DNA of 64,000 bases. It comes from Mobula hypostoma. Taxonomy: Eukaryota. Where the stretch lies: the NCBI RefSeq assembly GCF_963921235.1, contig NC_086097.1, positions 37,016,001 to 37,080,000 on the forward strand, in the 5' to 3' direction. The notes beneath the pieces were generated by a model. It was not told the origin of the DNA and ran no database searches. It worked only from the letters and a program-made list of their open reading frames with translations. This document shows, piece by piece, positions 4,701 through 41,500 of this stretch. Each line of letters opens with the position of its first letter. Within the stretch, counting starts at the first letter, position 1. The position numbers and the translations under genes are program-made.

Positions 4701-7635
4701 TGATTGCCTGAATATTTTCTTTATTTTTCTAAAGAAGTTACTAGGGCCTCAATACTAGTGAGGTGGGGCCTGAAAGAAGTTCGATCAAGTATCCAAACTG
4801 AGTCCTGGGATCTGAGAACCGATTTTGCCGCAGCATAGGAGTGTAGTGTTGTCCTTCCTTAATTTGGAAGTACTTTACAGGGCATTCTGACAACTATTTG
4901 AGGCCGATCTTGAAATCAGCTCTCATTGATTGAGTGAATCATCCCAAGCAATAGATAACTGTACAGACAAACTAAGAACAACTCTGATTTGCAATTAGTT
5001 ATGTCAATATCACTTTGGTTTTATTGATTAATTTTAGCAAAAATTGATGTTTACTCATAATGTAGGCGAATGTATTACATGTATATTTCTCCTTCTAAGA
5101 TATAACCCCATTCAGTAACCAACTTAGTCAGGTAATTACAACTTGAGAATGCATTTCAGAAATTGATATTGTTTTTACCATTTTCCCAATATAGTTAAAG
5201 TAAACTTCTATATTATTTTTGTGAATAGATACTGAGAAGATCTAGTCAATATTATTACCAATTGCAAATGGGTGATTGTAATAAACAGAAATATATATGC
5301 AGCACCAAACCTTAAGGTATAAAAATCTGGAAGAAATTTTTATATAAAATGCGAATCTGGAGGTGATTTTTCAGTAAATTCCAAATTGTGCAAATCTGGA
5401 TACGATTTTTGTTCATAGAATATTAATCCCGGATTTTAATATAAAATTGCCTCCTCATGTAGCTCATCAAAGCCAGAGATTCAAAGGTGATTCATCTAAG
5501 TGGAGGTATTTCCATAACTTTAGTGGAAGATGATTAAAACCCTGGCGAAGTGGTGTTAGTCATGCTTTTAAGTTTTCCTGCTATTTGTCTGAGGTCTCTG
5601 GCTCCATTCCTCTGCCTGACAACCATCTGAAGCTGAGCCAGACTATTTGCAACCTTGACCCCGAGGCAAACTTCTGACCACTGCTACGCATCCTCACTAA
5701 AGTCATCTAATTGCTCCCGTGTTTAAAAGCATTCAACTCCACTCCTGCTTCAGACCACCTAATAATGAAAGCCTTTAACTATACCCATTACCTCTAGACT
5801 TGATTAGTTTTAAAAAAAACAGTCCTATTCTTCCACCATCCATTATCTTGAGTCTGCTGGAACCTTGTATCTTAACTTTGCTGTGTATCTTAAAATAGAA
5901 CATCGAACATTTCAGCTGAGTACAGGCCCTCGGCCCATGATGCAATGTCAACCTTTTAAACTACTCTATGATCAATTTAACACTTCCTTCCTACCTCACT
6001 CTTCTTTGTCTATCATCTATGTGCCTAGCTAAGAGTTTCTTAAATTCCCAGATGTATCATGTTTTGTTCTTTTCAACCAATACTTCTATGATGCCATCTT
6101 GCAATAACTTCAAAATTAAGCAATATTTCAATTTTAAAACTCTCATTCTTAAATCTCTTCATAACTTTGTCTTGTAATTCCCTCCAACATAAATTTGTTT
6201 CTTTCAGTCAATCACCTATTGGCAGCTACAAATTGTCCCTACTGTTTTCCTCATCTTTAGGACCTCCATCATATGACCTCAGATCATACCTTGCAGTTTA
6301 ATGTAAAATAGTATTGGACAGCATGCGAAGATAGCTTTCAAATGAAGCTGAGGATGCAATATGACTGTTAAGCCAATCTTCCTCAGGAAGCCAATGCAAT
6401 AAATTCCTACTGTTCACCCACCTGCTTCCCTTTCAGATATGCATAGATTTTTTACTTTGAGTGAAAGCAAAAAAATCAGCCATACTTATTCAAAATTTTC
6501 TGAAAATAGATTATTGTTAGGAACAAAGTTGACCTGCGCGAGCTCACATTTTGTGCGTGTTTTATTGGAAATGTGCACTCGGAAATGCGGCAGCTCCTTA
6601 TTTTGATATGCCTCATTTCAACATAGACTTAATTATTGTACTGGCAACGCTATCATAAATGTGCTTGAAAAAAATTACAAGAAAACGGCCCTTTACTTTC
6701 AAAAGATCCTTCGCTCCCCTAATAACATCATCATAGAACAATATAAATTTACCCCAGGGGTCCAAACTGTCATAGAGTTGACAGCAATCTACCTAATCCC
6801 AGAAAATTGCAATTTGCTGCCACATTCTTGACCTCAGCAACAAAAATCTCTTCAACCATGCATAGACAGACACCAATTCATACAGGATTCTGGTGTTCAA
6901 AAGAAGCATAATTTAGTAATTATCATATATTTATTTTATGGTTACATTTAGCCATTGATTTCTTTCATCAATCATATAATGGTAATGACTTTTGACAAAA
7001 TAAATGAACTAGCTTGTGAAAATTACGTTTTAATTAACAACACTAAACAAAATTCAGAAGCAGATCCTCTTGAATTCTACTTTTTCTAATCTGTTGGTTA
7101 TAGAATTGTGCTGTTCCCTCTTCACAATAATGCAAAGTTGACAGATAAACTCCCTTGTTAATAACCGTACCCCTTTTTGAATATTTGTTATATCTTAACA
7201 TATGCATGAAGATTTGACAAATTGACAAAGGAGTTCAGTTTTCCTTCAAGATTCTTGAAGGACACAAAACATATGTTTATGTTTACCTCCCGCACCCATT
7301 TCCACTTTCCACAGGGATCGGTCCCTCCACAATTCCGTTGTCCATTCATCCCTCCCCACTAATCGCCCTCCGAGTGCTTATCTCTGCACGTGGGCTATGT
7401 GCTACGGCTGCCCATACACCTCCTGCCTCACCTCCAAACAGCCCTTCCCGGTGAGGTAATTCTTCACCTGCGAAGCTGCCAGGGCGTCTGTTGTGCCCCC
7501 GTGCTCCCGGTGCAGCCTCCTCTACATTGGTGAGACCCGTTATAAATTGGGGGATGGCTCCGTACGCCACAAGCAGAACAAAATGAGACCACCCCCAAGG
7601 CGGAGGGGCAACACCCTACATCCCATCTGGCTAAG

Positions 7636-7866
7636 CACAGCTCCAAAGCCATATTGAAGTCTGCTGGCAACACCACTGCTGTTGGCTGAATAACAGATGG
7701 CGATGAATGGGCACATAAGAGGGAGATTGAAAATCTGGTCGAATGGTGCCACAACCACAACCTCTCACTCAACATCTGCAAAACCAATATTATCGATAAG
7801 AGGAGGAGGAAACTGGAGGTCCACGAGCCGGTCCTCATGAGGGGAATCAGAGATCAGAGGGTGAGG
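7636..7866 (+). mobile_element. Internal Rex1-type RT fragment fused to the FREM exon
   Basis: Translates as ..[21 protein letters not shown].. with a decayed KFADDTT motif. Confidence 0.75.
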
Positions 7867-8067
7867 GTGAGTGCTCCAACAGGTCCAGGTGGAGTGACAA
7901 GCCCTACGACAAACACCTTCTCCACCTCCTCCAAGATGATTACTCTAGACTCAGTCTACTTCCAAGCTGGCTCCCGGGTGCAGTGTGCTGCTCAAGCTGT
8001 TAATTCCAATGGGGATGAAGGGCTCGAGTTAATAAGCCCTATCGTATCAGTCAGCACTGAGGAAGGT
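7867..8067 (+). pseudogene. Orphan exon fragment of a FREM2/FREM3 (FRAS1-related ECM protein) gene with its GT donor
   Basis: [64 protein letters not shown] closely matches the FREM2 C-terminal region as I recall it; ends GAAG|gtaata; no neighbouring FREM exons found. Confidence 0.8.
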
Positions 8068-9564
8068 AATACATAAAAGTGTGCTGTTGGTTCTTCAAAC
8101 AATATACTATGCTCAATTGTACGTTGAAAAATTATCAGCAAGGACGGTGGTACAAGTTCTCATAAGATAATAAAAGCGATTTATATTTTACAGTAAATAT
8201 TTTGAAATTTAACTTATTACTTTCTGATTAATACATTTACAACCTGATTTCTCCTTCTAGTAAACAAATTCCCCCGAACCATTTATTCCCTACTCTGACC
8301 TTACACTTCTTTTCACCTGCCTATCACCTCCCCCTGAGTCTCCACCTCCTTCCCTTTCTCCTATGGTCCACTCTTCTCTCCTATCAGATTCCTAAAAAAG
8401 CTCTCCAGCCCTTGACCTTTCCCTCCTGGCTTCTCCTATCACCTTTCAGCAAGGCTTCCTTCCACATTTTGATCTGGCGTCATCCCCCTTCCTTCTCAGT
8501 CCTGAAGAAGGGTCTCGGCCCAAAGCATTAACAGTTTATTCATGTCCATGGATGCTGCCTGACCTGCTGAGTTTCCCTAGCATTTTGTGTGTGTGTTGCT
8601 TTGAAGGACATTGTTTACCATCATGGCAAATTTTAGACAATTTTGTAGCCTCAGGGCTGATTTTGGATACTGACTACTTGCATAGATTCTTGCTTAAAGT
8701 CTCAGTACATACAGATAGGCAGATATTACATGATATCAATGAACAACAGCATTGACTTGACCTGGACAATGGCATTAATTACATTATCTGCTAATCAGGA
8801 GCAGAACCACATGTCTGCCTCTTCCCAATTGGCGACATCAGAGTGTTTGCTTCTTAAATTTCCTACCAAAGTATAACATTTTACATTTCTCAGCACTGAA
8901 CTTCATCTGTCACACATCGATCTATTCTAACAAACTGTTTCATCTTTCTCACAGTTCACCTTTCTCTGGGCTGTATCATTTGTTAATTTAGAAATAGTGC
9001 CATATACTCCAATATCCAAATCACTAATTTATGAAGAAAAACAGTGACCTTGAAGTTCCCTTGGTGGACCTAACAGGACCCCTAGGGAGCTTCAGTTCAA
9101 TTTCCTCCCATGTAAAGCAATCCTTTATTACTTCACTTGCTTTCCATTCCTTCAGCTGAATCAGAATCAAGTTTAATATCATTGACCTATGTCATGAAAT
9201 TTGTTGTTTTGCAGCAGTAGTACAACACAATACATAATATTAAACTATAGATTAAGATATAAATATAAAATTAAACACTATAGCAAAAAGAGAGCAAAAA
9301 AGGGGAAATAGTGAGAGTACATTCAGAAATCTGATGGCAGAGTGGCCATTTATTACATGGCACGTTATCAAATGTGTTTTAGCCATATAAACTGCATTTT
9401 AATAATAGCCATATTCATTGTATTTTCTTTGTCCTCCCTATTATTTCTTCAACTATGGACTATGCTGAGTGTCCTTTGGTTCGTAGTACTGGGAGTGAAA
9501 AGCAAAAGGGCTTGGACTGGTGACATGGACATAAAGAGTATAAACAAGACGTAGTAGGACAAGA

Positions 9565-9800
9565 GGGTAGGTAGGAGGTAGGTAGGCAGAGAGTGGTGAG
9601 TGTGTGGAATGAGCTGCCGGCAGCAGTGGTGGAGGCGGATATGATAGGGTCTTTTAAGAGCCTCCTGGATAGGTACATAGAGCTTAGAAAAATAGAGGGC
9701 TATGGGTAAGCCTAGGTAGTTCTAAGGTAAGGACATGTTCAGCACAGCTCTATGGGATAAAGGGCCTGCATGGTGCTGTAGGATTTCTATGTTTCTAAGG
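9565..9800 (+). mobile_element. CR1 LINE 3' end
   Basis: RVVSVWNELP remnant and aagggcctg..gtgctgtag..ttctatgtttcta tail. Confidence 0.75.
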
Positions 9801-10621
9801 CATATTTATTGACTATTTAATGGGTGGTCAGTAAAATTCTGCAGCAAATTTACAGGATTCAAGCTAGTTTATTTTCATCTGTCTGTACAGAAGTGTAATG
9901 GAGAACAAAATGATTGCTAGTCTGGATCTGATGCAGCATAAAATAACCACAATAAGCATAAGAACACAATACAGAGAAAACAACAAATATAAGTACAAGA
10001 GATTAGCCTATATACATAGAATAATAGTGTATACAATGCTTAAGCTTTATTGTTATATATAGCAACAAGAAAAATACAGCATAGGAGAAGTCCTTGTCTG
10101 ATGTGTATTTTGATATTTGCATAATGGTTGAATTGCAAGACCTTCCCTGCCAGTCCCAAATAAGTGCATTGTTCACTAAGCAAGATAATTCCCGGAGATA
10201 CCGTGCCAGGATTCCAGCAGACTTGATTGAGAGAGCTGCAGCTGTTCAGGTCAAACCATCACAGTGTAATGGCTGCAGAGTACACGTACAAAAAAAACTT
10301 TGAACTAAATTGGTTAAAATAAGGGAAAATTATGAATTGGGGGCCAGACCGAATACATTTCTGGATTGAGAGAGGATATTGTAAACTTCCTGAAAATACC
10401 TCAGGGTTGCAGTGAGCATGACTGTGAGCCGAAGGACTGGACAGCAGCCAATGTAATATCCATTCTTAAAATAAAACACAACTACATGGAACAATTATGG
10501 GCCAGTTGGCTTGACATCTCCGGTACAGAATGTTAGAGAATCTTTCCTTATATTTGAGTTAAAGAGAAAATAGAAGCAGCCCGCAAAGATTTTAAAGCAA
10601 CCTTTTTGGAGGATTAGCTTA

Positions 10622-12075
10622 TTAGAATCATATTTATTATCTTTGGTTTATATGATGTGAAATGTGCTACTTCATAGCAGCAGTACAGTGAAAGACATAA
10701 AATTGCTATAAATTACAAATCAACAGAAGAAAAGAATAATGAGGTACTGCTCATGGACTATCCAATGGCAGAGGGGATAAAGCTGTTTCTGAATCATTCA
10801 GCTTGGCTGTTCAGGTTCCCGCACCTCCTCCCTGATGGTAATAATGAGAAGACTGAATGTCCCCAGTGACGAGTGTCCTTAAAGGTGGATGCTACATCCT
10901 TGGGATACCACCTCTTCAAGATGCCCTCGATGGTGGAGAGGGTGTGACTGTGATGAAGCTGGCTAAATTTACAACCGTCTGCAGCCTCTTGCAATCCTAT
11001 GCATTGAAGTTTCCACACTAGGCTATGATAAAAATTACCAGAATGCTCTTTGGTGGCCGTATATTTGTATGACTTCTCAAGAGTCCTTGTTGACATACCA
11101 AATCTCAAACTCCTAATGAAGTAGAGCCACTGGCGTGCCTTCTCCATGATTGCGTCAATGTGTTGGGCCCAGAACAGATCCTCAAAGATGTTGATAGTTG
11201 GAACTTGAAGCTGCTCACTCTTTCCACTGATGACCCCTCAGTGAGAAGTGGTGTGTGTCCCCTCAATTCCCTCCTTCCTGAAGTGGTTAACAATCAATTA
11301 CTTGTTTTTGCTGACGTTGAGTGTGAGGTTGTTGTTGGATCACTGCTCAGACAGCCGATCTACCGCAGTCCTGTCACCAGAAAGTGGTGTCATCGGCAAA
11401 ATTATCGCTGCCATTTGGGCTGAGCATGGCACACACACAGTCATGATGTAGGGGGAGTAGAGCAGTGGGATAAGCACACACCTTTGTGGACTGTCAGTAA
11501 GGAGATGTTATTACTGTTTGCACTGACTGTGGTCTCCCAGTGAAGAATTCAGGGATCTGGTTGCAGAGGGAGGTCCAGTAGCATAGGTTTGAACACGTGC
11601 TGATTGATATTGAGGAGATGGTGGTGTTGAACACTGAATTATAATTGATAAATAACAGCCTGTCTAGGTGCCCTAGAGCAGAGTGGGGAGCCAGTGATAT
11701 TGCTTTCACCGCAGACCTGTGTGGGGGCAGGCACATTGCAGCTGGTCTGGCTCCTTGTTTCAGGGTGGAGATAATTCTAGATGTAATAACCCTCTTAATA
11801 CACTTCATAATTGTAGATGTGAGTGCTACAGGTAGACAACTCACCCTGATCTTCTCGGGCACCGGTTTGATTGCTGCCTTTTTGAAGCAGCTGCGAGCCT
11901 CAAACCACGGCAGTGAGAGTTTGAAAGTGTCCTCGAACACTCCCGCTTGTTAATCACCACAGTTTTTGAGTACCCTGCCAGGCAGACCATCGCGATGCTT
12001 ATGAGGATTGACCCTCATTGAAGGATGTTCTGATATCAGCTTCAAAGATAAAGATCACAAGGTCACCAGCTACTA
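10622..12075 (-). mobile_element. Degenerate Rex1/Babar LINE
   Basis: CFKKAAIxPVP, PVALTS, LLFINYNSVFNT, KARQxLYF, LLPSGRR fragments. Confidence 0.85.
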
Positions 12076-13101
12076 TGGGGGTTCACAAGACATTGGTCTC
12101 GTTTGAAATCATAATGACACTTGACAGTACAGAGCTGTCAGCCTCAAATACATGTCCAAACTCCATCTTAAGGTGGGGGCAAAGCAACTCTTTGATAATA
12201 TTGGGAAAGCACAAAATGTTTAAAGTGATTAATAATTTATATGGTCATTTGCTTCCCAGCTTTAAATTTGTTGATATTCAAAATCAAAAACTGCCAGAAA
12301 GATTGCAGATGCCATTCAGAAAAAAGGTCATCATTTAAAATAGTTTACTGCATAAATGCTGCCTCCCTGCCGAATATTTAATTTTAATTGCCAGTTTTTT
12401 TTTCTTCTCCCATTCCTGTTCCTGTGTTGAGAATGTTGACTCCTCCCAAATCCACAGCTGCATCACCCTCTGGAGCCTCAAACAAGTGCCCATTAGTTCA
12501 TGTGCATTTTGACAGCAAGTAGCAAGAGGCTGTGAGGCTAATCACAGCCAACCCCTAATCCTGACATCATTCCAATGTTGTTGCACACACACTTCCAGCC
12601 AGAGTGCCTGGTTAATAATCAGGAAGAACTGCAGCCAATTTAAACCTCTGTAATCCAAATCTGTTGCAGGCTATTGTACCATAGTTGCTGCCGCCCTGCT
12701 TCTAATTACATAACTAGATACACATGAGCAATCAAACATGGAACTTTTCAGGTCAGTGTGGTTTGCCATCTGACTGGATAAACTTGCTCAACCTTCATTG
12801 GAGGGATTTTGAATTAAAAATTGCAGTGAATTTCAAGTCTCAGAGAGATATTTTTTGACTAATAGGTTGCCTTTCTTATCTAGAAAGTATGAGAACGGAT
12901 CAGTGTCTACTGTGTTACCAATGACTGTACATCACGCCTGTGTTTATAGTTCAAGTAAATACATTCTTCAGGGAATATTTCCAGATAAAGCATGCAACCT
13001 CAACCACTAAAATCACATCTCTTTCAAAATACTACAAATGCTCCTGGCATATTTTATAAAGTCATAGTCATAGAACACTACAGCACAGCACAGGCCCTTT
13101 G

Positions 13102-13325
13102 ACACACACCAAAGTGCTGGAGGAACTCAGCAGGCCAGGCAGCATCTACAGAAAAGAGTAAACAGTCGACATTTTGGGCCGAGGACCCTTCTTCAGTCCT
13201 GATGAAAGATCTTGGCCTGAGACATTGACTGTTTACACTTTTCCATAGATGCAGCCTGGCCTGCTGAGTTCCTCCAGTGTTTTGGTGTGTGTGGCTTTCG
13301 ATTTCCAGCATCTGCAGATTTTCTC
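13102..13325. repeat. Inverted (fold-back) pair of Penelope terminal repeats
   Basis: 13102-13196 is the reverse complement of ~13199-13292 with a few mismatches. Confidence 0.88.
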
Positions 13326-15664
13326 GATTTCGTGATTCTAGTTGGTGCCAGCTGGTTTTCTGCCCATTCCCATCTACCTGCATCCATACCCTCCATACCA
13401 TCTGATCGATACTCCTATCCAAACTTCTCTTAAATTAAACCTGTATCTACCACTTCTGCTGAGGCTTGCCCTGTGGAATAAATCAATGCACAAAATACGA
13501 ATAGTTTCTGTATTTCATAAAATCTAGAAAATGAGATTTAGTTGTTTTGTTAGCTTGAATTTTCATTTAAGTAATGCTGTAACAGACCCTTGAGGAACAG
13601 GAGGTAGGATACAGCTGAATAAGCTGACAATTATGCTCTGAGCCTCTGGAGTACAGAGAGCTCCAAAATAAACCCACATATTTTGTTGATTATTTTGTAT
13701 TCCCAAATCTAAATCCATGCAACTCCCTGTAAATAACTGATAGCACTGCCACTGAGGTGTGGGAGAATTTGTATCATGCTTCTAGTACTAGGTGCTGTCA
13801 CATTCTACTGTGATCAAGGTGGATGTGTGCCTCTAACATGCTAACACTAGACTCAAATGCTTGTCCTGCCTGATGCCTTATAGAGAGCTGAATAAAACTC
13901 AGGGCAAACAAAACACTATTCACCAATTTAGCCAGAAGCACATTCGGTGTGTTCAAATCGCTGAAGCGTATTAAAATATGGATTCCATTTGATGCAAACT
14001 TATTGTGCAGTGCAGCCATCACATGAGGAACTCAGTAACAGGCAGAACTGTAACTTATATTCAACTTGTCAAGCAAACTACAGTGCTGACAGCTTCTAAA
14101 AAAAAATAAATAAATACCTCTTTCATTTCAGGTTAAATTATACATTTTTTGTTTTTGGAGTACTATCTACTTTTGTACCCTATAGAGATATGTCTAGATT
14201 CACCATTGTAAACATTTAGTGGAAGGACTAGTTCAGACAAACTTTTTTTTAAGGCTTCTGCATAAATATTTTATAGCATTCCCGTCTTATAACTTTTTAA
14301 TGGTTGGTTCAGATATATCCTCTATAGGGTGAAATGTTTTATAGCAGTTCTCTGCATTCCTCTTACTTACCAAGTTCACTGTTCCCAGGGGTAGATGTCA
14401 CAGTTTCAGGTTACACATGTGGTCAAACTGTGCCGGGGGAGGTTGACTGGTTACAGCAGTTTATAATTAAACATTTTAGAGACTGTCTGATCAAAACATT
14501 GCAGAAAACACTGAATCAGAAGTCAATTGCATTCAACTGCCAAGCTCTAGATAGATTACTGGTGCAAATGAAGTCAAATGCCCATGAAACACACAAAATA
14601 GTATTAAAAATTACGCTTTTGATTTGGAGCGATGTGACTCAGCCCCACTCTGATAGGTTAGCCACCCACCCCCGCCCCCCCATACACCCACAGGTAATGG
14701 AGAACTCTTTCATCTTAATGTCCCTTTCAGTACTTTGCTTTCAACCAATGCCTTCTGAATAATATGAAATGTAAGCTGAAACCTACATCAGTTTACTTAA
14801 CCACCAAAATAGTTGATATTCGTTCCATTTGTGCCCTTCCCCATTTTCATGGCAATGCAAGGGCCATCTTTTGGAAAGTAAGTGCAGAACAAAAAGTAAA
14901 CTGCTGGAGTTGGTCAGGCAGCATCTGTGGAGGGAAATGGATAGTCGACATGTCGGGTTGAGATCTTTCATCTCGGTTTCTCCAGCTGTTTATTTTGTGC
15001 TCCAAGTCCCAGTGTCTGCAGTCTCTTGTGTCTCCGTGGATAAACAGAGCTTTATTTGAGCGAAACTAAGAGGGTGAGGTGACACTATTTCATTTTAACA
15101 ACTAAACCATATTACTTGTTCAAGTTATTGAAAGGTCAACCAACATTTTTGTTCACCAGACAGAACTACATGGAAGACCAAGTAGAATGCCAAGAAAGGA
15201 GCACCTCTGCTTCCTCAAGAGGCCAAATAAACTTGACCAGGCTCCTTTGAACCTCACCGGTTTTCTTTTTTTAAATCAATGTACTCTAGAAAGTGTTTTA
15301 TCTAATTGCATCATAGTTTGGAACAGCAACTGTTCTGCCTGTGGCCACAAGAAACTGCAGAGTTGAGGACACAGCTTAGCGCATCACAGCCTTCCTTCCA
15401 TGGACTCTGTCTACATTTGGTAATGTAGTTAGCATATTCAAAAATCCCACCCATTTCAAAGATTCTCTCTTCTTCTCTCGGGCGTAAGATGCTAAAGCCT
15501 GAACGCACTCACCAGCAGGCTTCTATCCCACTTGTAAAACTTTTGAATGGCCCTTTGGTACTGTAAACTAGACTCTTGACCTCACAATCTACCTTGTTAT
15601 GGTTTCCTCCTTATTGCCTGCCTGCACTGCACTCTCTCTGTAATTGTGACACCTTATACCACAT

Positions 15665-16435
15665 GGCAACACTCACAAAATGCTGGAGGAACTCAGCAGG
15701 GCAGGCAGCATCTATGGAAAAGACAGTCGACATTTCAGGCCGAGACCCTTCTTCAGGACTGAGAAGAAAGCGGGAAGAAGCCAGAATAAAAAGGTGTGGG
15801 GGGTGGGGAGGGGAAGAAGGTTAGCTGGAAGGTGATAGGTGAAGCCTGGTAGGTGGGAAAGGACAAGGGCTGGAGAGGAAGGAATCCGATAGGGGAGGGG
15901 AGTGGGCCGTAGGAGAACGAGAAGGAGGAGGGGGCCGGAGGAAGTAATAGACAAGGTGAGAAGAGATAGAAGGCCAGAGTGGGGAACAGAAGAGGAGGGG
16001 GGTGAGGAAATTTTTTAACACTAGAATGAGAAATCAATATTCTTATACCAACAGCTTGGAGGCTACCCAGATGGAATACAAGGTGTTGCTCCTCCACCCT
16101 GAGATTGAGAATGCCATCGTCTTGGTTCAAGGAATCTGATAGGAGAGGAGAGTGGGCCGTAGGAGAAATGGGAGGAGAAGGGGGTCCCAAGGGGAAGTAT
16201 TCGGCAGGTAAGAAGTAAGAGGTCAGAGTGCGGAAGGTGGAGGGGAGGGGGAGGAGTTTGTTTACTGGAAGGAGAAATTGATGTTCTTGCCTTCAGGTTG
16301 GAGGGTACCCAGGTGGAATGGTATTGCTCCTCCATCCTGAGGGTGACCTCATCTTGGCACAAGAGGAGGCCATGGACCGACACGTTGAAATGGGAATGGG
16401 AATTGAAATTTAAAATGTTCGGCCACCTGGAAGTA
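15665..16435 (-). mobile_element. Penelope 3' fragment with partial tandem duplication
   Basis: LRxEEQHL.FHLGSLQ occurs twice; ggaatc(c/t)gatagg(g/a)gagg(g/a)gagtgggccgtaggaga at 15881 and 16131. Confidence 0.82.
15724..15761 (-). ncRNA. Minimal hammerhead ribozyme motif in Penelope pLTR
   Basis: CAGUC-CUGAAGA-AGGGUCUCGGCCU-GAAA-UGUC-GACUG, with perfect stem I. Confidence 0.7.
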
Positions 16436-25995: not shown

Positions 25996-26763
25996 TCAGA
26001 CTAAGTTATAGTTCACACAATAGAAAAGGATCTCTGCCATTAAAGTTATCAAAAAGCTGAAATAGCTTTTAACTACATGTGCCTGTTGCATTTTTACGCA
26101 TGGCATACAAACAGACCATTTGGCCTATTTCATGTCTATATTCCAAGCCCTCACATCGCTCAGGCTATCATACTCATTTCTTCCTCATTCATGCACCTTA
26201 TTTGCTACAAAACATCAAGGTATTAGATGAAAGACTAAAAAAACCTCAAGTTTTTATTAATGCAGCCCAAGTAGAACTTCTTGTAAATGCAGAGATTCCT
26301 CAAACTCCCCACTGCCAATTTTTTTTAAATGTGAAGATTAAGATAATGCTCAACATTGGAACACAAAAGGAAACTTTAATCATGAAACCAGGAAATTGCA
26401 GTCTTTAGCTTTTATGGCTGTTAGTTTGATGGCAAATCTTTCAGCAGTTTCTCACAAATGGGGCAAGATAGGAGCATTATGCAGACCACAGCCTCCCTAA
26501 AAAGATTTCAACATGCTCCACATAGTCCCTGGTACTCATCATTCACACAATTAAAAATCACAGGTGCCCCAACAAAGCTTTTCACCAACATGTTTGCTGT
26601 GTTGTATTTCATTAAATACAGATGATAAATTGATTATTGGTGCTAAAGATAACTCTATTCAACCCTTTTTATAGTTTGCATGGCTCCCTAATTCTATCTT
26701 TAAAAGAATACAATGACACTTTATTTCTATTTTGATCAAAGATCACAAAATAAATTAACTTAC

Positions 26764-26908
26764 CAACCACACCAAAGATATTTTGAATATTTGGCACGTA
26801 CATTGCCAGCAGCACAATCAAAATTTGAATAACAAGCGTGACAACAATATGATGGATGTAGGAAAAGGGGCGGTTTGAAAAACACAACAACATTAGCGAT
26901 TTCCTTGC
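26764..26908 (-). CDS. SLC38A6: SLC38A6-like coding exon (ARKSLMLLCFSNRPFSYIHH...VPNIQNIFGVV)
   Basis: 145 nt, ttgcag/gtaagt; lies inside ORF 26669..26929. Confidence 0.95.
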
Positions 26909-27765
26909 CTGCAAATAAATGAAATTCAAAGATAATGAAACAAGTTTTAGAATAATTCTCCTTACTTGGTATAACTTATTTTTTTAAAAACTAGTTAAGC
27001 ATTGCCTCTGAAAGAAACAGCAATAACATTTACACAATTATGTATTTCTGAACCAATCAGAAAATGAACCTTTTCTGACCAGTTCCTTGAATTTGTTTAG
27101 TTTTGGTTTTCAAGCCAGTTCACTTATTATTTATTGAGTGCTTTTAACAACTTAGAAATTGTATTTTACGCCCCACTTCCCACTGCAATTTAGGGGGACT
27201 GTAATTTACTTTTAATTTTTTCAAATCCCCATTTGTATTTATAGTGATTTTTTATCCTTATACTTTTTTGTGGATTTTGACTGAAATTGTTTCAAGCAGT
27301 ACCAGTGAATTTTCCCATTGGGTCTGCAATGATCAGCACTCCAGACAGGTGATTATTCACCAACCTAAACTCTGTCCTCAGAGCAGGGCAAAGTATCAGT
27401 GCTTCCAGGGACACAAGAAACAAAAAAAAAAATCATATCCTTAAATTCTATCAACACAAATTGTTGTTTTGTGTGCTAATTGGAATTAACAGACACAAAG
27501 ATGTGGAATGAGAGGGAAAGAATGAAAAGAAAACAATAAGGGAACGGGAATGTGCCTTGGAAAGGTGCAATGTTATCCACTGAGAGTCCAAGACTTGCAA
27601 AGGTGTAAAAATGGTTCTGAGATAAAGGCAACATTTAAAGGTGATCCTCAGTGGCAAAGTCCATAGATGCAAATTTTAATTCCAGCACTTCTGAAAGATC
27701 GAAAGATATTGTTTCAAATGTCATGAAAATTAAAAGCTGTACCAAAGTACACAAGTTATTTTTTA

Positions 27766-27989: not shown

Positions 27990-28145
<156 letters not shown>

Positions 28146-28659: not shown

Positions 28660-28725
<66 letters not shown>
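28660..28725. repeat. Compound microsatellite (TG)7(TA)20(CA)6
   Basis: Read directly from the sequence. Confidence 0.97.
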
Positions 28726-28901
28726 TGCTATTGGGAGGAAGAGTGAATTAAAATTACACTTGGACAATACAGGAATATTTTGAAGAGCAAAATTTAGAAC
28801 TCAGGTGGACTGATTTCTACAGGGTAACAGGTATACAATAAACTATCAGCCAGCTTAAATAATATGTATTACTTTGTTTAGTAGGTCCTTCCACCCACTT
28901 A

Positions 28902-29096
<195 letters not shown>

Positions 29097-30148: not shown

Positions 30149-30199
30149 CTTGTATGAAATTTGAAAAAACTTTGGCTTACACTCATCGGAACTTAAATT
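30149..30199 (-). CDS. SLC38A6: SLC38A6-like coding exon (NLSSDECKPKFFQISYK)
   Basis: 51 nt, tttag/gtttgt; CKPKxF loop motif; phase 0-0. Confidence 0.88.
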
Positions 30200-30512
30200 C
30201 TAAACAAGAAACAGAAGTTTATTATAATTCTGTTAAGATGCACATCACCCGTCTCTTCAGCTGTTTAATCATGCACAGTCTACATTAACCAACTTGCATA
30301 TTACTACTTGTATTACTCATTAAAGTCACCAACACTTAAATATGAAAAAAAAATCCTTCCTACTTATTATCATACTTATTGGCATGCAACAAATTGGGGT
30401 TGGGTACTAATTTTTCAGCAGATAACAATAATCACAGCTAAGTCTGATTCTGACATTCATATATTTCACAAGAGACTATAAGGTGCTGATTAGGTATAGA
30501 TTAATATTAATA

Positions 30513-31209: not shown

Positions 31210-31750
31210 GATACACTTGAAGTCTAGAGCAATTATAAAAGACTGGACACACTATCAAGTACAAATTTAAGTTGGAGGAAACCCATTACAAAGCATATAC
31301 GTATTTTATAAAATTGGAATGCACCTGAAAACACATGTTAAAGTAATTAATTCTATTAAATAAAATGTTTTGAGTCAATTCATTTTTGTTCACCAATTCA
31401 ATTTAAACCAAATTCAATAGTTATTTTTTAACCAGTTCTAAAATTGTAAACAACAAGCAAACTTTTGGAACACGGATTCAAAAGTTGTGAGAGGCTAAAA
31501 AATTTTGTTGCCTATAATCACAAGATCCTCATGAATATGAGTATCCCAACCCAATACCAATGAGATGGTCTTTTCATGGGTCTAGTACCAGCTCTTTTTA
31601 GAAGCAAGTGGATTAGCTTACAAAAAAAAGGGTACTGTTAAAAAGATCACTCTGGGTGAGGCTACAATGATGCTGGGATGGAATACAAGGCAAGTTATAT
31701 TATATCCAATCATGAAATACATATACAAAAGAGTATCATAAGTAACTTAC

Positions 31751-31813
31751 GTGAACATAATCTACAGTGCCATTAAACAACGGGCAAGGAATGAACCATT
31801 TTTTAACAATGAC
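31751..31813 (-). CDS. SLC38A6: SLC38A6-like coding exon (VIVKKWFIPCPLFNGTVDYVH)
   Basis: 63 nt, tgtag/gtaagt; KKWxIPCPL motif. Confidence 0.92.
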
Positions 31814-32282
31814 CTACAAAAGAAAGTATACAGTGTGTTTGACAAGATTTTGTTGAAATAATTCCATTTGTTTGCAGAGCCAGAACTAACGAGAACTTTC
31901 AGCAATTGAATGAATTATTTTTCCAATGATAGGGGTCACTGTTGAGCTTAATCCTACATATTGCACATTTCCAACATGGGTCTTAGATTACTAGTCATGA
32001 GTCGAATTTTTGTCATTTTACATACCCATTGCCCCAGAATCTGAACCCAGAGACGAACTGACAAATCCCTGATTGTGTATGCTGACCGAGTTAAAATCTC
32101 TAACTTTTCTAGTACATCTGTTTCAGTGACATTGCATTTACCAATGAACCATCAGAAGGAATTTGACTCCACTGCTTTAATTTTTTTTAGTTCAAATATT
32201 TGCTTGGAAACTCAGCAACCTGGAGAAACAAAATATGGCACTAATAAAGATGACTAGAAAAAAAAATTTAAAAATCTACACT

Positions 32283-34980
32283 AGTAGTTTCCAAACATTT
32301 TTTGGGTTACCACCTCCTTGGCTCCCAGACCACATTCCCTTTCTGGCCATTACATAAAAATTATAAAGAATTTTGAGTTATGATGCACAGTGAAAGAAAA
32401 CAGAAACTGCCAATTTAATGCAGGGACAAATAATTGCAAAATGTTTTTCAAATCAATTAAAAGTTACAAATAAAATGTCTTTAATTACAGTAAAAACAAT
32501 TTTCATCAATTTTAGAGAGTATGTTAGTCCAACTTTTCACTACTTCAGTGCTTTTTCACTCCTCACTGAGATGGATGGACTTGGTGCAGTATATCTGCTT
32601 CTCATATCAGGTTGAATATCTATCATTCAGAAAGAGTCTCCCATTCCCTCATTGCTTTGAATGAAGTTGGGTGACTGCACTGAAATTGCACTCCACTAAA
32701 TGTGATGTTGCAAAGGCAATAAGAAACCAACTTTATATTTTTCCCACAGTGCAGGATACTGTTCAGAGATTTCATTCTGCATTCAAAAGCCTTGATATGA
32801 TTTGTTGAACCTCGGCTTCAGCTCAAAGTCATTTTGTAGTGAGATCCGTACTTCCTCCATCTTTCCTGTTAATTCCTCATTACAAGTGTTCAAGAATGGA
32901 TTTATTACCGAATCTGGAATTTGGATCAAGAGAAGATTCTGAAATTGTCAGACATGTCCTTATGCAGCTCACCCAGGTGGGCACAATATATTTGAATATC
33001 ATCTGGTATTCCTTCTTTCTCTTCCAACTCAGAGATGCTCTGAAATTGGAAAAGGTCGCAATGGCCAATGATGCACTTAAATAGGGTTAACTTGGACAGA
33101 AATGTGGAGACGACTGATTTGACTTTGATAAGATTCACATAATTTCTTTGCAATTGAAGATTGATTTCACTAAGTTTCGCAAATAATTCTGACAAATAAG
33201 CAACATCATGCCTAATATTCCAGGGTTGATCATTTCCGAGCATCTCAAGTCTTCATAAAAAATGTTATCACAGTTTCAAATATTGCATAAAACCATCTCA
33301 AGGAGTTTCCTTTTGAGAGCCATCTGGCTTCAATGTGCAACAGCAAACTTTCAAGCTGTTGATCGTTCTCAATACAGTCCTCAAAAGAGTTGAGAACTAA
33401 GAGCATGAAACTTTATTTTATTTACCACTGTGATAACACTATATAATGACTTGTGCAGCTGATCTCTTGGGTTTTTTGCAACAAGTTGCTGCCTGTGAAC
33501 TACATGGTGAATGGTAAATATGCTAGGGTCAGTTTTTTTTCCCCAATACAGTTATAACCCCACAGTGGTGTCCTGTCATTGATAGTGCCTCATCTGCTGT
33601 ATAAGCAAGAATATTGGTGAGCAGAATGTCCTTCTCTTTGAAAAAGTGCTCAACAAACCGAAACACTGACTTCTGTGTTGTATCTGTTTCTAGACCCCTT
33701 GTAAGTAACAATTCTTGAACTATGCTTTCATCTTTTATGAAACAAATATAACCAAGAAGCAAAGATTTATTGTCTAGCAAAGATGACTCATCCAATTGCA
33801 GAGCAAATTCTGTTGTCTTATGTATGTAACACAATGTGTTCTTCTGCATTCTCAGACATTTCATCTATTCATCTTTGAACAGAGTTGTCGCTGAGCACAA
33901 TCGCTTTAATTACTTGGTCTGGTGAATCAAGCAAAATTAATTCCTCTGTTGACTTATGCAAAACTATTCTCAGAACCACCCTTACGGCTGGCAGAATCAG
34001 TTCTTGTTCAATTGTATGGGGCTTTCCAGATTTAGCAATGAACAATGAAATGTTGTGTGAAGCACACAAACCATCACTGTGTTGCTGTGAAGTGCTAGCA
34101 AACATGTTTTGAAGTGTTTTCTATTTCTGAAAGTTCTTACAAAGTGACTGAAAATAAGCCAAGTTCTTGTTTGCTTTATCAAATGTACTCTTCAAATGTT
34201 CAAGGAGCCTGGATGACTTCATTGCCTCATTTGAAAAAAAAACTTTTTCATACAAGCATTGACTGCTGTTGGTTGCTCGGTGCTGGTATAAATCCATATT
34301 TCAGATACACCACACTGTAGTGTTTAATTTCTTTTTCATTTGGTCTGCTTCTGCCATTTTCATTATGGATTAACGACCACAACCACCTACTGTTTAAGCC
34401 TAACCTCAAGCACTGTGATCAGTAAAGGTAGAGTTACATCATCATAGCTCAGGCAAAACCAGACACTCTGCCTGAAGGTAAATAAGGTGGGGCAGCAATA
34501 TCTCCATTGGACCGTAGACTACAGAAATGCCGTCAAGAACAGGCAGATTTAGAACTTTACTCCATTGAACGCCATACCCTAATTCGCAGGCATTGCTTTT
34601 GCTGCGTGATTAGAATATAGGAATCGTACTATCACTGTATTACATATTGGTAACAATGCATACCAAGCCTGGAAATAACATGATTTCTCCAGTCCAGATT
34701 TCTCATGATATGCCAAATAGAAAAGAGCCATCTTGCTTTTCAACACACTTTGAGCAAAGTCTAAGAGAGCAGTGGATTAGCAAGAGATGAGGTGATTATG
34801 TGATTTTTGTAATTAATTATCAGACACTGAGGATCAAATGCTTATAATAACTAATTAATTTCTTAAATTAAGCCTGTAGTGTCTCAGGTGCTCCCCTTTC
34901 CACCAAGCACCCCTCCCCCCACTGCCCCCTCTTAGAAACTCCCACCACCTCCCCCCCCACCCTGGGGGGGATAGGGCAAT
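32283..34980 (-). mobile_element. Decayed hAT (Buster/Charlie-type) DNA transposon; transposase remnant ~34357-32563
   Basis: YLKYGF, KPHTIxQELILPA, LSDNSVQR, FALQLDES, RWLSKG, AYLSELFAKLxEINLQLQ, terminal HQVHPSQ*; many stops and frameshifts; TIR-like tagtagtttccaaac at the left end only. Confidence 0.88.
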
Positions 34981-36681
34981 TTTAGTTTTTACAGCAAAGA
35001 GTCATCTGTTTATCTTATTTTAGTATTTTCTGAGAAGATAGCAAAAGTGAAACCAGAATGCTGAATGGTAAAATTGCCATTATTCCCGTGTTGCTAACAA
35101 AATATTTTGCAAAAATAATGTACTTAGCCTGCTATGCTTATACTTAGAAAAAAGTGGCAAAATTAATTCTCTTTGCATTCTAATTTCATTCTTGTATACA
35201 AATATGAAGAAAATGTTTTTTCAGCTCAGTAATATTTAGTTCCATATTTATATTGGAGTAAACATCACTGGATCTGATTTGTATGCTACTATTTAAGTAA
35301 ATTATGCTGTAAAGTTCTGGCTGGTCTCCAGAAGGGTGTATGCAGTTATATTTCCTCGGAGAAAAACACCTTGGAGCAACAGCACAGAAATACACCAGGG
35401 AGTAGATTGAAAAGAACATAATTATTAAAGTACTTCCAGAAATTAAAATGCTGCAGAATTGTAGATTATAACATTTTAATTTAATAGTTAAAAATGAAAA
35501 AAAGGTTTGTAACTTAAAACAGAATTCAACAGTCTTTCCTAGGCACATTGAGTCATGCTTTCAACATTATTGGCATCAATCAAGTTTTATCATCAATCGG
35601 CTATCAATGAATTTTCAACCTGATTATCCTATTCTTATTAGCAAAGGAGAAGTATGTTGGATATACAAGGCCAGGGATCAGATCATCCTCACTTTACAGT
35701 TGCAATATTGAAAATCACTCATTATTTTGGTGCAAACTCTACATTGAAAAATAGCACATTGGCATATTAACAACCAACTTATCAGAAACTACCAAACAGA
35801 AAATAATTCCACAGATAAGCTCCTGAATAGGATTGGAAGAAATTATCCCAATTTAAAAAATCAAGTTTAATTTAACTGAAACTGCCAGTTCATTTACCTG
35901 TCACTTGTGTACTTGTTGATTCCCAAACAAGAAAAACATTTTAAAGTTCTCCTGCTGTTTTTAGATCACCTCTAAAAGTTAGTGGGAAGATGAAGGATTG
36001 GGAAGTTTTTAAAAACCTACAGAGAGCAACTTAAAAAAAAATCATTAGAAGGGAAAACATGAAATACAAAAGCAAGCTAGCAAATAATATCAAAGAAGAT
36101 AGTTAAAGTTTTTTCAAGAATATTAAAAATAAAAGAGAGATGAGAGTGGATATAGGACCACAAGAAAATGAGGCAGGAGAAATAATAACGAGGGACAAGG
36201 AGATGGCTGACGAATTAAGTAAGTATTTTGCATCAGTCTTCACTGTGGAAGACATTAGCAGTATGCCTGATGTTGCAGTGTGTGAAGTAAGTGAAGTGGG
36301 TGCAGTTACTGTTACAAGAGAGAAGATGGTCAAAAAGCTGAAAGACCTAAAGCTACTTAAGTCACCCGGATCAGAAGATCTGCACCCTAGGGTTCTGAAA
36401 GAGGTAGCATTAAAGACTGTGGTGGCATTAGAAATGGTCTTTCAAAAATCACTGGACTCTGGCACAGTGCCAGATGTCTAGAAAATTGCAAATGTTACTC
36501 CACTCTTTAAGAAATGAGGAAGGCAGCAGAAAGGAAATTACAGACCAGTTAGCCTGACCTCAGTGGTTGGGAAGATGTTGGAGTCAGTTAACACAAAATA
36601 ATCTGCAGATGCTGGGGTCAAAGCAACACTCACAACACGCTAGAGGAACTCAGCAGGCCAGGCAGCATCCGTGGAAAAGAT

Positions 36682-36719
36682 CGGTCAACGTTTCGGGCCG
36701 GAAACCTTCGTCAGGACTG
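36682..36719 (-). ncRNA. Minimal type I hammerhead ribozyme motif in Penelope 3' terminal repeat
   Basis: CAGUC-CUGACGA-AGGUUUCCGGCCC-GAAA-CGUU-GACCG: stem I, catalytic core and palindromic AACGUU in place of helix III. Confidence 0.75.
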
Positions 36720-38490
36720 TAAGGGGAAGGGGCAGAGGCCCTATAAAGAAGGTGGGGGGAGGGTGGGAAGGAGAAGGCTGGTAGGTTCCAGGTAAAGAAC
36801 CAGTAAGGGGAAAGATAAAGAGGTGGGGGAAGGGAGGCAGGGAAGTGATAGGCAGGAAAGGTGAAGAAAGAATAGGGGAAAACACAATGGGTAGTAGAAG
36901 GAGGCAGGACCAAGAGGGAGGAGGTAGGCAGCTGGGGGAGGGGGCAGAGTGACATAGGGATAGGGGAAGGGAGGGGGAGGGAATTACCGGAAGTTGGAGA
37001 ATTCTATGTTCATATCAAGGGGCTGGAGACTACCTAGACGGTATATGAGGTGTTGCTCCTCCAACCTGAGTTTAGCCTCATCATGGCAGTAGAGGAGGCC
37101 ATGTATGGACATATCTGAATGGGAGTGGGAACTAGAGTTGAAGTGGGTGGCTACCGGGAGATCCTGTCTGTTTTGGCGGACGGAGCGGAGGTGCTCGACG
37201 AAGCGGTCCCCCAATCTGCATTGGGTTTCACTGCTGTAGAGGAGGCCACACCGGGAGCACCGGATGCAATGGATGACCCCAACAGACTCACAAGTGAAGT
37301 GTTGCCTCACTTGGAAGTACTGTTTGGGGCCCTGAATGGTGGCAAGAGAGGAAGTGTAGGGACAGGTGTAGCACTTGCGCTTACAGGGATAAGTGCCAGG
37401 TGGGAGATCCGTGGGGAGGGACATGTGGACCAGGGAGTCGTGGAGGGACCGATCCCTGCGGAAGGCGGAGAGGGGTGGAGAGGGAAAGATATGCTTAGTG
37501 GTGGGGTCCTGTTGAAGGTGGCAGAAGTTGTGGAGGATAATGTGCTGGATCCGGAGGCTGGTGGGGTGGTAGGTGAGGACAAGGGGAACTCTGTTCCTGT
37601 TGTGGTGGCGGGAGGATGGGGTGAGAGCCAAAGTGCGGGAAATGGAGGAGATGTCACCATTGATGACAGCAGAAAGGAAACCACGATCCTTAAAGAAGGA
37701 GGACATTTGAGATGTCCTGGAATGGAAAACCTCATCCTTGGAGCAGACGGAGGAACTGGGAATAGGGAATGGCATTTTTGCATGTAGCGGGGTGGGAAGA
37801 GGTATAGTTGAGGTAGTTATGAGAGTCAGTGGGCTTGTAGAAGATGTCAGTGGACAGTCTGTCTCCAGAGATGGAGACCGAGAGATCGAGAAGGGGGAGA
37901 GAAGTGTCCGAGATAGACCAGGTGAATTTGAGGGCTGGGTGGAAGTTAGAAGTAAAGTCGATGAAATTGATGCGCTCAGCATGGGTGCAGGAAGCAGCAC
38001 CAATGTAGTCGTCAATGTACCGAAGGAAAAGTTGGGGAGCAGTACCAGAATAGGTTTGGAGCACCGACTGTTCCACATAACCAACGAAGAGGCAGGCATA
38101 GCTAGGGCCCATGCGAGTTCCCATAGCTACACCCTTGGTCTGAAGAAAGTGGGAAGAGCCAAAAGAGAAGTTATTGAGTGCAAGAACCAGTTCCGCCAAC
38201 CGGAGGGTAGTGGTGGTGGGGAACTGGTGAGGTCTATTATCCAGAAAGTAGCGGAGGGCTTTGAGGCCTTCTTCATGGGGAATGGAGGTGTATAGGGATT
38301 GGCCATCCATAGTGAAAATGAAGCAGTTGGGACCGGGGAACTGTAAGTTATTGAAGAGGTGGAGGGCATGGGATGTATCCCAGATGTAGGTGGGGAGAGA
38401 CTGAACTATGGGTGACAAAATGGAGTCCAGGTAGGCAGATACAAGTTCGGTGGGACAGGAGCAGGCAGAAACTATGGGTCAGCCGGGACA

Positions 38491-38579
38491 AGCAACACAC
38501 ATCAAAGTTGCTGGTGAACGCAGCAGGCCAAGCAGCATCTATAGGAAGAGGCGCAGTCGACGTTTCAGGCCGAGACCCT
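38491..38579 (-). mobile_element. 89-bp Penelope terminal-repeat fragment nested in the Penelope RT
   Basis: 13-bp TSD GTCAGCCGGGACA at 38478-38490 and 38580-38592; sequence matches the other pLTR copies. Confidence 0.88.
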
Positions 38580-41500
38580 GTCAGCCGGGACAGTCAGGCT
38601 TGTGGATCTTGGGGAGGAGGTAAAACCGAGCGGTACGGGGTGTGGGAATTATGAGTTTAGTGGCTGAGGATGGAAGGTCTCCAGAGTTGATAAGGGCAGT
38701 GATGGTACGGGAGACAATGGTTTGATGTTTTTTGGTGGGGTCCTGTTCCAGGGGTAAGTAAGAGGAGGTGTCAGAGAGCTGCCGTTTGGCCTCAGTGAGG
38801 TAGTGGTCCATCCGCCAGACTACTACAGCACCACCTTTGTCAGCGGGTTTGATGGTGAGGTTGGGATTAGTGCGGAGAGTGGAGGGCAGTGCGTTCAGAG
38901 GAAATTTAGAAACTGAATGGCCTGAAGGTGGGGCTTTCGAAATACCATGATCTGAAGTTGGGATCTTTGATACCAAACGATTTGAGGGTGATGTTTTTGT
39001 CAACAACCAGCCTGAGGCACCAACATCATTATTAGACTCTAATATATTTACAACTGCCTGATCAGCTTCAGGCTGTAATGCACCTGAGGGTGTAGGGAGC
39101 ACCATCTGATCTTCAGAGATGCCTGCCACAGTTTGGTTGGAACAGAAGAGAGGAGTGGTAAAGTTGAGACGGTTGATGTCTCGGCGACAGTTGGAGATAA
39201 AAAGATCGAGTGCAGGTAGAAGGCCCGGGTGGGGTGTCCAGGAGGAGGAGAAGGGTTGAAGACAGGAGAAGGGGTCATCAGTAGGGGGACGGGAATTTCT
39301 GCCAATGAAGTAGGCTCGGAGACGTAGGCGACGGAAGAAGAGTTCAGTGTCATGGCGGGCACGGAACTCACTGAGGTGTAGACGGAGGGGGACAAAGGTG
39401 AGGCCCTTGCTCAGCACAGAACGTTCTGCCTCAGAGAGGGGAAGGTCAGAGGGGATTGTGAAGACACAGCAAGGGTTGGGGCTGGGGTCGGAGGAGGGTG
39501 AAGAGTGGGAGGTCTCAGGAGGGAGAGTGGGGTTGGGATGTTCAGGGAGAGCGGGGTTAGGGGAGGATGAGGGATCAGAGGAATGGAGGGGTGATGAGGG
39601 ATAGAGGGAAGGTTGGGAGTCGCGGGGAGGAAAGAGGGCAATGGGAGAATAAGACGGGTGGTAGGACCCAGCGGCAGTAAGAGCGGTCCCAGTCCGGAGA
39701 GAGTCGGGACCTCGGTCCGAGCTGGATCCGGAGCTGGGGGTGGCGGAACCTGTAGCCTGCAGGGCCCCAGAGCTGAGGTCGGAGACGGAGGCAAGTGAGT
39801 CTATGGCCCGCCGGGGGCTGGTGCCCATGTCCAGGAGGCCGTAGTTCCAGTCGGGGTCAGAGTCAGAGGCGGATGGGTCTTCAGCCTGCCGAAGGGCTGA
39901 GAAGTCGAGGTCTGAGGGGTCGGGGTCCGGGCTGGAGCCGGTTGTCATCGTGGGAGTCAGTTGTTAAGGATGAGGTGATGGAGTACTTGGTGACACAGGA
40001 CAAGATAGTACAAGGTCAACATGGTTTCCTTCAGGGAAAATCCTGCCTGACGAACCTGTTGGAATTCTTTGAGGAGTTTACATGTAGGATAGGTTAAGGG
40101 GATGCAGTGGATGTTATATATTTGGACTTTCAGAAGGCCTTTGACAAGGTGCCACACATGAGGTAGCTTACCAAGTTAAGAGCCCATGGTGTTACAGGAA
40201 AGTTACTAACATGGTTATAGCATTGGCTGATAGGTAGGAGGCAGTGAGTGGGAATAAAAGGATCTTTTTCTGGTTGGCTGCCGGTGACTAGTGGTGTTCC
40301 TCAGGGATTGGTGTTGGGACCACTTCCTTTTATGCTATATTTCAATGATTTAGATGATGGAATAGATGGCTTTGTTGCCAGGTTTGCAGATGATATGAAG
40401 ATTGGTGGAGGGACAGGTAGTGTTTTGGAAACAGGTAGGATACAGAAGGGCTTATACAGATTAGGAGAATGGGCAAGAAAGTGGCAAATGAAATACAATG
40501 TTGGAAAATGTATGGTCCTGCACTTTGGTGATAGAAATAAATGTGTGGACTATTTTCTAAATGGGGAGAAAATTCAGGAATCTGAGATGTAGAGGGACTT
40601 GGGGGTCTTTGTGAAGAACACCCTGAAGGTTAACTTATAGGTTGAGTCAGTGGTGAGGAAGGCAAATGCCATGTTAGCATTCATTTCAAGAGGCCTAGAA
40701 TACAAGAGCAGGGATGTGATGCTGAGGCTTTATAAGGCACTGGTGAGGCAGCACCTTGAGTATTGTGAACAGTTTTGGGCTCCTCATCTTAGAAAAGATG
40801 TGCTGGCATTGGAGAGAGTTCAGAGAAGGTTCACAAGTGTGATTCCAGGAATGAAAAGGTTATCATACGAGGAATGTTTGATGGCTCTGGGTCTGTATTT
40901 GCTGGAATTCAGAAGAATGAGGAGAGGGGGATCTCACTGAAACCTTTCAAATATTGAAAGGCTGAAACAGAATAGATGTGGAATTGATGAGAGAGTCTAG
41001 GACAAGAGGGCACTGCCTCAGGATAGAGCGGCGCCCTTTCAAAAAAAAAGAGATGTGGAGAAATTTCTTTAGCCGAAGAGTGGTGAATCTGTGGAACTTG
41101 TTGCCACGTGCAGCTGTGGAGACCAGATTGCTGGGTGTACTTAAGGCAGAGATTGATAGGTTCTTGATTGGACATGGCATCAAAGGTTACAGGGAGAAAG
41201 CGGGAAATCGGGTTGAGAAGGGGAGAAAGGATCAGCCATGATTGAATTACGGAGCAGACTCGATGGGCTAAATGGCCTAATTCTGCTCCTGTGTCTTATG
41301 CCCTCTTCAGCTCCTGCCTTTGTTCCTCTAAAAAGCTGCTGCTTTAACGGAGCATTATCACTAGCCCCATTTGAGGCACAGTACAAAATTTCATTTAATA
41401 AAGTTACTCGGGATTTTATATGTTAAAAGCTCTTTTAAAATAGAAACCATTGTTTATACCTAAAGGCTTAACTTCCATTCTAGCACATCTTTTAAAAAAT

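Follow-up and report, generated by a model that had tools for sequence, protein, structure and literature searches.

Copied pieces of sequence can enter a genome without the marks of ordinary retrotransposition, and Penelope retroelements can take up foreign coding sequence. Here we compare such systems with two Penelope copies from a window of repeat-rich vertebrate DNA (the whole 64-kb stretch analysed, positions 37,016,001 to 37,080,000 of contig NC_086097.1 of the ray Mobula hypostoma), each of which is interrupted by host coding DNA. In the accessible parts of the report that defines them, class 2 templated sequence insertions have neither a target-site duplication (TSD) nor poly(A), and show a microdeletion and microhomology at the insertion point; induced class 2 inserts measure 73–414 bp, and for induced events an RNA template has been demonstrated (PMC5110952). 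Human L1 provides examples of composite patches, in which a retroelement is joined to other DNA without a TSD (PMC1920257). Penelope elements of the rotifer Adineta vaga have internalised N-rich segments in their open reading frames (ORFs), and an intron-containing non-ribosomal peptide synthetase (NRPS) gene lies between Penelope pseudo-long-terminal repeats (pLTRs), according to the portion available of that account (PMC3846280).

Both inserts described here are real host coding DNA, which bears out the claim of an initial annotation that two Penelope copies hold protein-coding-like DNA: one contains a FREM2-like exon, the other a piece of a long coding transcript. We consider both to be, more likely than not, class 2 templated sequence insertions, that is, break-repair patches in resident copies. 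The Penelope copies are sinks, and their cargo has not spread. As in the class 2 polymorphisms, as far as they are described in the part of the source at hand, the inserts are copied sequence without TSD or poly(A), with a microdeletion, microhomology and an intact donor (seen for insert 2 and presumed for insert 1, no other FREM exon being present in the window); donors there are often transcribed and include introns and LINE (long interspersed element) pieces, as here, and insert 2, at 233 bases, falls inside the 73–414 range (PMC5110952). They differ in being fixed or old and in occurring in a cartilaginous fish and inside retroelements; insert 1 is in addition composite and 609 bases long. 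With the endonuclease-independent non-classical L1 insertions (NCLI) they share the lack of a TSD, a target deletion (found at 18 of 21 loci there), microhomology and the joining of LINE to non-LINE DNA. However, the main insert of those loci, in the passages available, is L1 from active-type RNA, whereas here the LINE piece is decayed, a host exon is the main cargo and insert 2 is free of LINE sequence (PMC1920257). The likeness to the Adineta elements lies in foreign coding sequence within a Penelope ORF and in unspliced host sequence enclosed with the element in one TSD. The Adineta inserts, as that report presents them in part, are 460–554 codons long, in frame, at set positions and in several copies, or replace the whole interior (PMC3846280), whereas here short, unique pieces replace 6–8 bases and one is probably younger than its element.

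Host coding DNA within two Penelope copies

Penelope copy 1 is a 5′-truncated 3′ fragment at 7265–8600 on the forward strand (all coordinates are window positions), bounded by an identical 10-bp TSD (7255–7264 and 8601–8610). Its 5′ part (7265–7630), covering the linker and the GIY-YIG region, is old and decayed, with deletions and a stop; it is 69% identical to copy 2 and to a copy at 19.6 kb, and the YIG motif is still readable. The 3′ part (8240–8600) is 75–77% identical to three window copies of the same subfamily. The element is interrupted after 7630 and resumes at 8240, with loss of 8 bases that two other window copies have at this place. The intervening insert 1 (7631–8239, 609 bases) is a composite of three parts, all on the forward strand, in which coding sequence makes up only 200 bases and Rex1-like sequence 235.

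The first part (7631–7865) is a decayed piece of a Rex1-like LINE reverse transcriptase (RT), recognised by tblastx and by alignment to the window's Rex1-like copies. (The labels Rex1, CR1 and hAT are putative and based on protein motifs.) Its catalytic aspartates are gone, and it contains one stop and a 9-base deletion; it was therefore not copied from the RNA of an active element. The second part (7866–8065) is the 3′ two thirds of one coding exon of the FREM2/FREM3 family, identified by protein matches and alignment. Matches were obtained with 120 of 360 candidates, the best at 80% identity (E 7e-26), and the named ones are FREM2. About 30 codons of the exon start are absent and 12 bases have been lost in frame, while the 3′ end is the conserved exon end, where genomic homologues also stop. 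The piece combines a minor-type with a major-type motif, and on sequence grounds could be FREM2 or FREM3. This exon is an orphan, since six long FREM proteins match the window at this site only; membership in a resident gene was considered and rejected, the exon being single, truncated and damaged. The third part (8066–8239) consists of 174 AT-rich bases (27% G+C) behind a GT donor, the GT falling where the homologous genomic ORFs diverge, and may represent the start of the FREM2-like source intron. Insert 1 crosses no splice junction, and it holds stops.

At the joint between the Rex1-like and FREM pieces (7860–7871), a six-base word occurs twice in tandem instead of once. Slippage or duplication of a microhomology join would give such a doubling.

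Penelope copy 2 (36590–39952, reverse strand) is young and near-complete but dead, recognised by Pfam (RVT_1) and protein matches. Its 10-bp TSD (36580–36589 at the 3′ side and 39953–39962 at the 5′ side, reverse strand) lies within a CR1-like LINE. The copy was killed by a frameshift near 37745 and by a nested insertion; none of its 866 element codons is a stop, which fits a decay of 1–4%. The encoded protein has a CX3CxxC linker and a CxxC between GVI and YSS, with a mutated YIG motif. Neptune elements are characterised by a CX2-5CxxC linker and by cysteines between the GIY and YIG positions, and copy 2 agrees with this clade in its single RT-then-GIY-YIG layout, its linker and its GIY/YIG cysteines, as far as the available description goes (PMC8557442). 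The linker motif also occurs in Nematis, and the placement of copy 2 is by motifs and not by an RT tree.

Insert 2 (38902–39134, reverse strand) is an internal stretch, 233 bases in length, of a long coding transcript of the host that related species have as well, characterised through contigs from sequencing read runs. Of 24 listed runs, 20 contain its sequence words; they come from 7 coded organisms, and four of them were aligned on 38700–39340: X1 and X8 from organism A (X1 is possibly the source sample), X7 from organism B and X19 from organism F. Small shares of the words in organisms C, D, E and G carry no weight in what follows. X8 and X19 were taken as RNA by guess, no run listed with insert 2 words being recorded as RNA. 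The 233 bases replace 6, since in other element copies a stretch of 6 letters is all that separates 38901 from 39135 (3 of 4 runs). The donor match reaches from 38900 to 39135, and thus 2 bases at one end and 1 at the other are common to donor and element, an overlap near chance level.

Both inserts lack a TSD, and only a few bases, 8 and 6, were lost, as the initial annotation had stated. The longest repeat flanking insert 1 is 5 bases, compared with 10, 10 and 13 for Penelope insertions in the window; for insert 2 the longest flanking match is 6 bases and lies away from the junction. The ordinary insertions were likewise described correctly as carrying TSDs of 10 and 13 bp; they comprise copies 1 and 2 and, as a control, a nested 5′-truncated Penelope tail of 89 bases in copy 2 (38491–38579, reverse strand; 13-bp TSD at 38478–38490 and 38580–38592). 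A poly(A) tract is absent from the junctions of both inserts; the sole AATAAA of insert 1, at 8169, lies about 65 bases before the junction and so outside the 10–30 bases in which a poly(A) signal would be expected. An insertion of the class 1, LINE type was rejected on the lack of TSD and poly(A).

In X1, a 327-base contig crosses both junctions of insert 2 without a difference at a depth of 5.93, and a second contig carries the other, source alleles at a depth of 5.7; the flanks sum to 10^3–10^5. The long contigs of X8 (8,693 bases) and X19 (11,252 bases) match over exactly 38900–39135, with 5 and 11 differences, and then diverge from the element. Thus the donor is intact, with its alleles present in the second DNA contig of X1 and in the long contig of organism A. 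In X7 (84% of which was read), one contig has the copy alleles at both copy-specific sites and then continues in two versions at depths of 58 and 41.6, within the 43–79 of single joints; the shared contig has a depth of 73.6, against 70–76 predicted for a two-locus bubble. These contigs, with no junction-spanning one of organism B among those listed, indicate that organism B probably holds both the copy and the source once each. At positions 39066 and 39083 the copy and the organism A source carry the same letters, and the second version of organism B agrees with organism F, though B seems to hold the copy. An old polymorphism would perhaps account for this pattern.

The read data bear on whether the chimeras might be assembly artefacts, which we regard as extremely improbable. 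Assemblies do fail at repeats, the read support covers insert 2 only, and X1 may be the very sample from which the assembly derives. Against this, the 327-base contig passes both junctions of insert 2 unchanged, the copy's own CpG mutations are also present in a second organism's contig, the damage in the FREM piece is foreign to a functional exon, and both chimeras lie within matching TSDs.

The element-sense frame is the only one of six that is free of stops in both source versions of insert 2, and it stays open for 10 and 9 codons into the donor flanks. Among the source-side changes, all 5 listed at third positions leave the residue unchanged (overall, 5 of 9 changes are silent where 29% is expected; p = 0.08), while both listed copy-side changes are CpG transitions that alter residues; the listing includes 4 of the 5 differences of X8 and 9 of the 11 of X19. 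A chance open frame was rejected, given a probability of 1.1% per frame by shuffling and the existence of the donor. The encoded protein is rich in Ser, Pro and Thr, and its 3′ half (38902–38990) consists of 10-residue repeats starting with Ser-Lys or Thr-Lys, whose register is kept in the donor flank. No relative was found among 17 candidates of 138–2000 residues, among 1.84 billion representatives or in the PDB, with no usable Atlas match and no Pfam family. The source protein, judged from the contigs of 8.7–11.3 kb, may lie beyond the 2000-residue limit of the candidates.

No stop occurs in insert 2, which is entered in frame at its 5′ end, yet by itself it shifts the frame of the element (net +227). 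The frame is restored by the loss of 2 bases from a TC run (38873–38876, reverse strand) that lies 26 bases downstream, where the other copies carry 2 additional letters behind 38874 in 4 of 4 runs; this gives 460 open codons up to the nested insertion. Either chance or selection may explain this loss.

Probable break repair, possible template jumping and the timing of the inserts

The initial annotation had cast the Penelope copies as carriers or sinks of host DNA. Only the second role stands; the first is unsupported, because the chimeric contig of insert 2 has the depth of its source (5.93 versus 5.7) and neither insert recurs in the window. Contig depth is a rough measure of copy number, and this comparison concerns insert 2. 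By depth, insert 2 does not occur in more than one integrated copy, and insert 1 is single within the window. Neither chimera keeps an ORF through the element: insert 2 shifts the frame and copy 2 is broken further on, and insert 1 contains stops. Element and cargo do lie inside one TSD in both copies, as is expected for a later insertion too.

The scenario that we favour for both inserts would begin with a germline double-strand break inside a resident Penelope copy. Repair would have sealed it with a brief stretch copied from another genomic site, at the cost of 6–8 target bases, with microhomology of 0–3 bases and neither TSD nor poly(A). A patched break should leave the element resuming close to where it stops, and it does so within 8 bases in copy 1 and 6 in copy 2. 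The template of insert 1 may have been unspliced, either FREM2-like genomic DNA or pre-mRNA, and would have been joined to already decayed Rex1-like sequence over the shared six-base word. The template of insert 2 presumably lay within the large coding region of a second gene. The Penelope copies would have served as neutral landing places.

The relative ages of cargo and element favour this scenario for copy 1. In the FREM piece, 4 of 44 codons are changed at columns conserved in at least 90% of the matches, while in the element 28 of the 251 sites on which copies of its subfamily agree are altered (11%). Simulation gives a probability of 0.024 for at most 4 changes in 44 at 11% decay, and of 0.14 at 8%. 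Counted codon against codon, the figures are 4 of 44 for FREM and 18 of 50 for the element (Fisher p = 0.003), a difference inflated by alignment edges and subfamily differences. By these comparisons, the FREM exon probably arrived after the element of copy 1.

Template jumping at Penelope integration, also proposed in the initial annotation, would have the RT leave the element RNA, copy a host RNA and return, so that element and cargo integrate together within one TSD. We consider it unlikely as a general account, plausible for copy 2 and unlikely for copy 1. Each chimera does lie inside one TSD, all three captured pieces are in the sense orientation, and insert 2 could be as old as copy 2. 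There is a precedent in Adineta, where, in the accessible part of the report, Penelope ORFs internalised long foreign coding segments, a gain explained by jumps, and intron-containing genes were mobilised (PMC3846280). Template jumping at integration would not yield copy 1, however, if the FREM piece postdates its element, as its lesser decay (p about 0.02) makes probable. A return within 6–8 bases, twice, would need a broken element RNA held in place. Moreover, the rotifer inserts described there are in frame, 460–554 codons long and multicopy (PMC3846280), whereas insert 2 shifts the frame and is unamplified.

Several observations weigh against repair patches as the explanation of both inserts. 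The chance that all three captured pieces are sense to the element is 1/8; this orientation is predicted by template jumping and not required by break repair. Two events in 64 kb both fall in Penelope, which against the whole window gives p = 0.011, a figure qualified by the fact that inserts outside recognisable elements would be missed. The dating of copy 1 uses references within the window, so that subfamily differences, alignment edges and CpG content inflate the figure for the element, and the FREM piece was dated on columns conserved among its matches and not against the true ray FREM sequence. The TSD of copy 1 is identical at 10 of 10 positions, a little odd for about 11% decay. For copy 2, the dates of element and insert are inseparable (2–3 of 233 for the insert versus 10 of 408 for the flanks, p = 0.23–0.39; 0.05–0.27 without CpG), and the lack of stops in its 866 codons permits a copy as young as its insert.

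A different order of events is conceivable for insert 1. An old Rex1-like insertion in the Penelope copy would later have been broken and patched with the FREM sequence, and the rest of the Rex1-like element and its TSD deleted; in that case a Rex1 copy, and not Penelope, would hold the exon as cargo. Decay has gone much further in the Rex1-like piece than in the FREM piece, and the exon joins the former directly. The deletion would, however, have had to stop no more than 8 bases from the old Rex1 boundary, and no trace of a TSD is seen, which makes this sequence of events very improbable. Comparison of the Rex1-like piece with window copies of other subfamilies (29 of 91 against 26 of 94) gave no date.

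Proposed specificity to Penelope and the setting of the window

The absence of cargo from CR1 and Rex1 copies, noted at the outset, holds for the 7 Rex1-like and 3 CR1-like copies that were aligned, none of which has as many as 20 extra bases. It does not amount to a Penelope excess. Penelope accounts for 6,762 of the 19,417 bases assigned to the three families, and two of two events in Penelope have p = 0.12. Since, in addition, the FREM exon joins a Rex1-like piece directly, a Penelope-specific process is not supported. A Pfam control on 265 open frames outside elements gave 2 matches, both to exons of an amino-acid transporter; this control is without power, because the FREM frame itself scored nothing.

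These figures bear on the suggestion that Penelope is a preferred sink, its GIY-YIG endonuclease cutting resident copies at a higher rate than other DNA and its RT or host repair filling the break with nearby RNA. In favour are the two events in 6.8 kb of Penelope with none in the 10 aligned Rex1-like and CR1-like copies, and the further Penelope tail inserted in copy 2. A Penelope-like protein is reported to cut both strands, with its own pLTR named as a possible target, but the enzyme studied favours AT-rich sites, at least in the part of the study available (PMC11167929), and the two break sites here are rich in C. A CCAACC word, read in the sense of the element, adjoins each break (8240–8247 and 39135–39141), a coincidence noticed post hoc; the offsets differ, and the word occurs five times in copy 2. 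With two events of two at p = 0.12, we judge preferential cutting improbable. Of the original proposal of GIY-YIG cutting followed by templated repair, the repair fits our data and the dependence on Penelope is not supported. The systematic mobilisation of host exons that it was meant to explain finds no support, given cargo that has not spread, a FREM piece that probably postdates its element and an insignificant excess.

The closest named relatives of the window's Penelope protein are in rays and sharks, at up to 90% identity (621 matches). A metagenome scan for related Penelope loci gave 32 distant ones only, at 25–56% identity and none usable. At 13102–13318 and 15660–16431 lie two Penelope tails arranged in inverted fashion and a partial tandem of two Penelope 3′ ends. 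Many small deletions of 9–60 bases are seen in copies both old and young (7500–7590, 7908, 8247, 37745 and 37655), several with 2–3 shared bases at their ends. These deletions suggest frequent microhomology end joining in this lineage.

The window contains a long Rex1-like LINE at 52363–54534 (forward strand) with open frames of 192 and 530 residues, for which Pfam gives only RVT_1 and ALKBH8_N. A second Rex1-like copy (44676–45848, reverse strand) is 89–95% identical to it and has a 65-base deletion. Broken frames at 32700–34200 (reverse strand) have no Pfam match and resemble a hAT-type transposase. The two amino-acid transporter exons (Pfam Aa_trans; 26672–26983 and 27990–28145, reverse strand, at 26.7 and 28.0 kb) probably belong to a resident gene, presumably SLC38A6. 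Penelope copy 2 is located upstream of these exons and has their orientation. An Rfam search gave no match.

Implications for exon capture

A more far-reaching view can be put forward, though we hold it to be doubtful. An abundant Neptune-type element might re-cut its own resident copies, with the RT filling the cut with sense host RNA, introns kept; exon fragments would then be collected well above other DNA, with an occasional open chimeric ORF, such as that of insert 2 with its 2-base loss. If true, vertebrates would have an element-biased route of exon capture, of which no report was found in a literature search. A search on cartilaginous fishes gave nothing relevant by title, subscription papers being mostly outside its scope. 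A real Penelope excess across the genome, with sense bias, seems to us similarly doubtful.

The templated patches themselves are a known kind of accident, of which the two inserts are further members. They are common enough in the germline of cartilaginous fishes for two to be found in 64 kb, and stray exon fragments of this sort inside repeats can mislead annotation. Were a genome-wide Penelope excess with sense bias nevertheless true, it would provide an in vivo trace of target choice and template switching by Penelope-like enzymes, processes that are poorly known, and would constitute a new source of exon shuffling.

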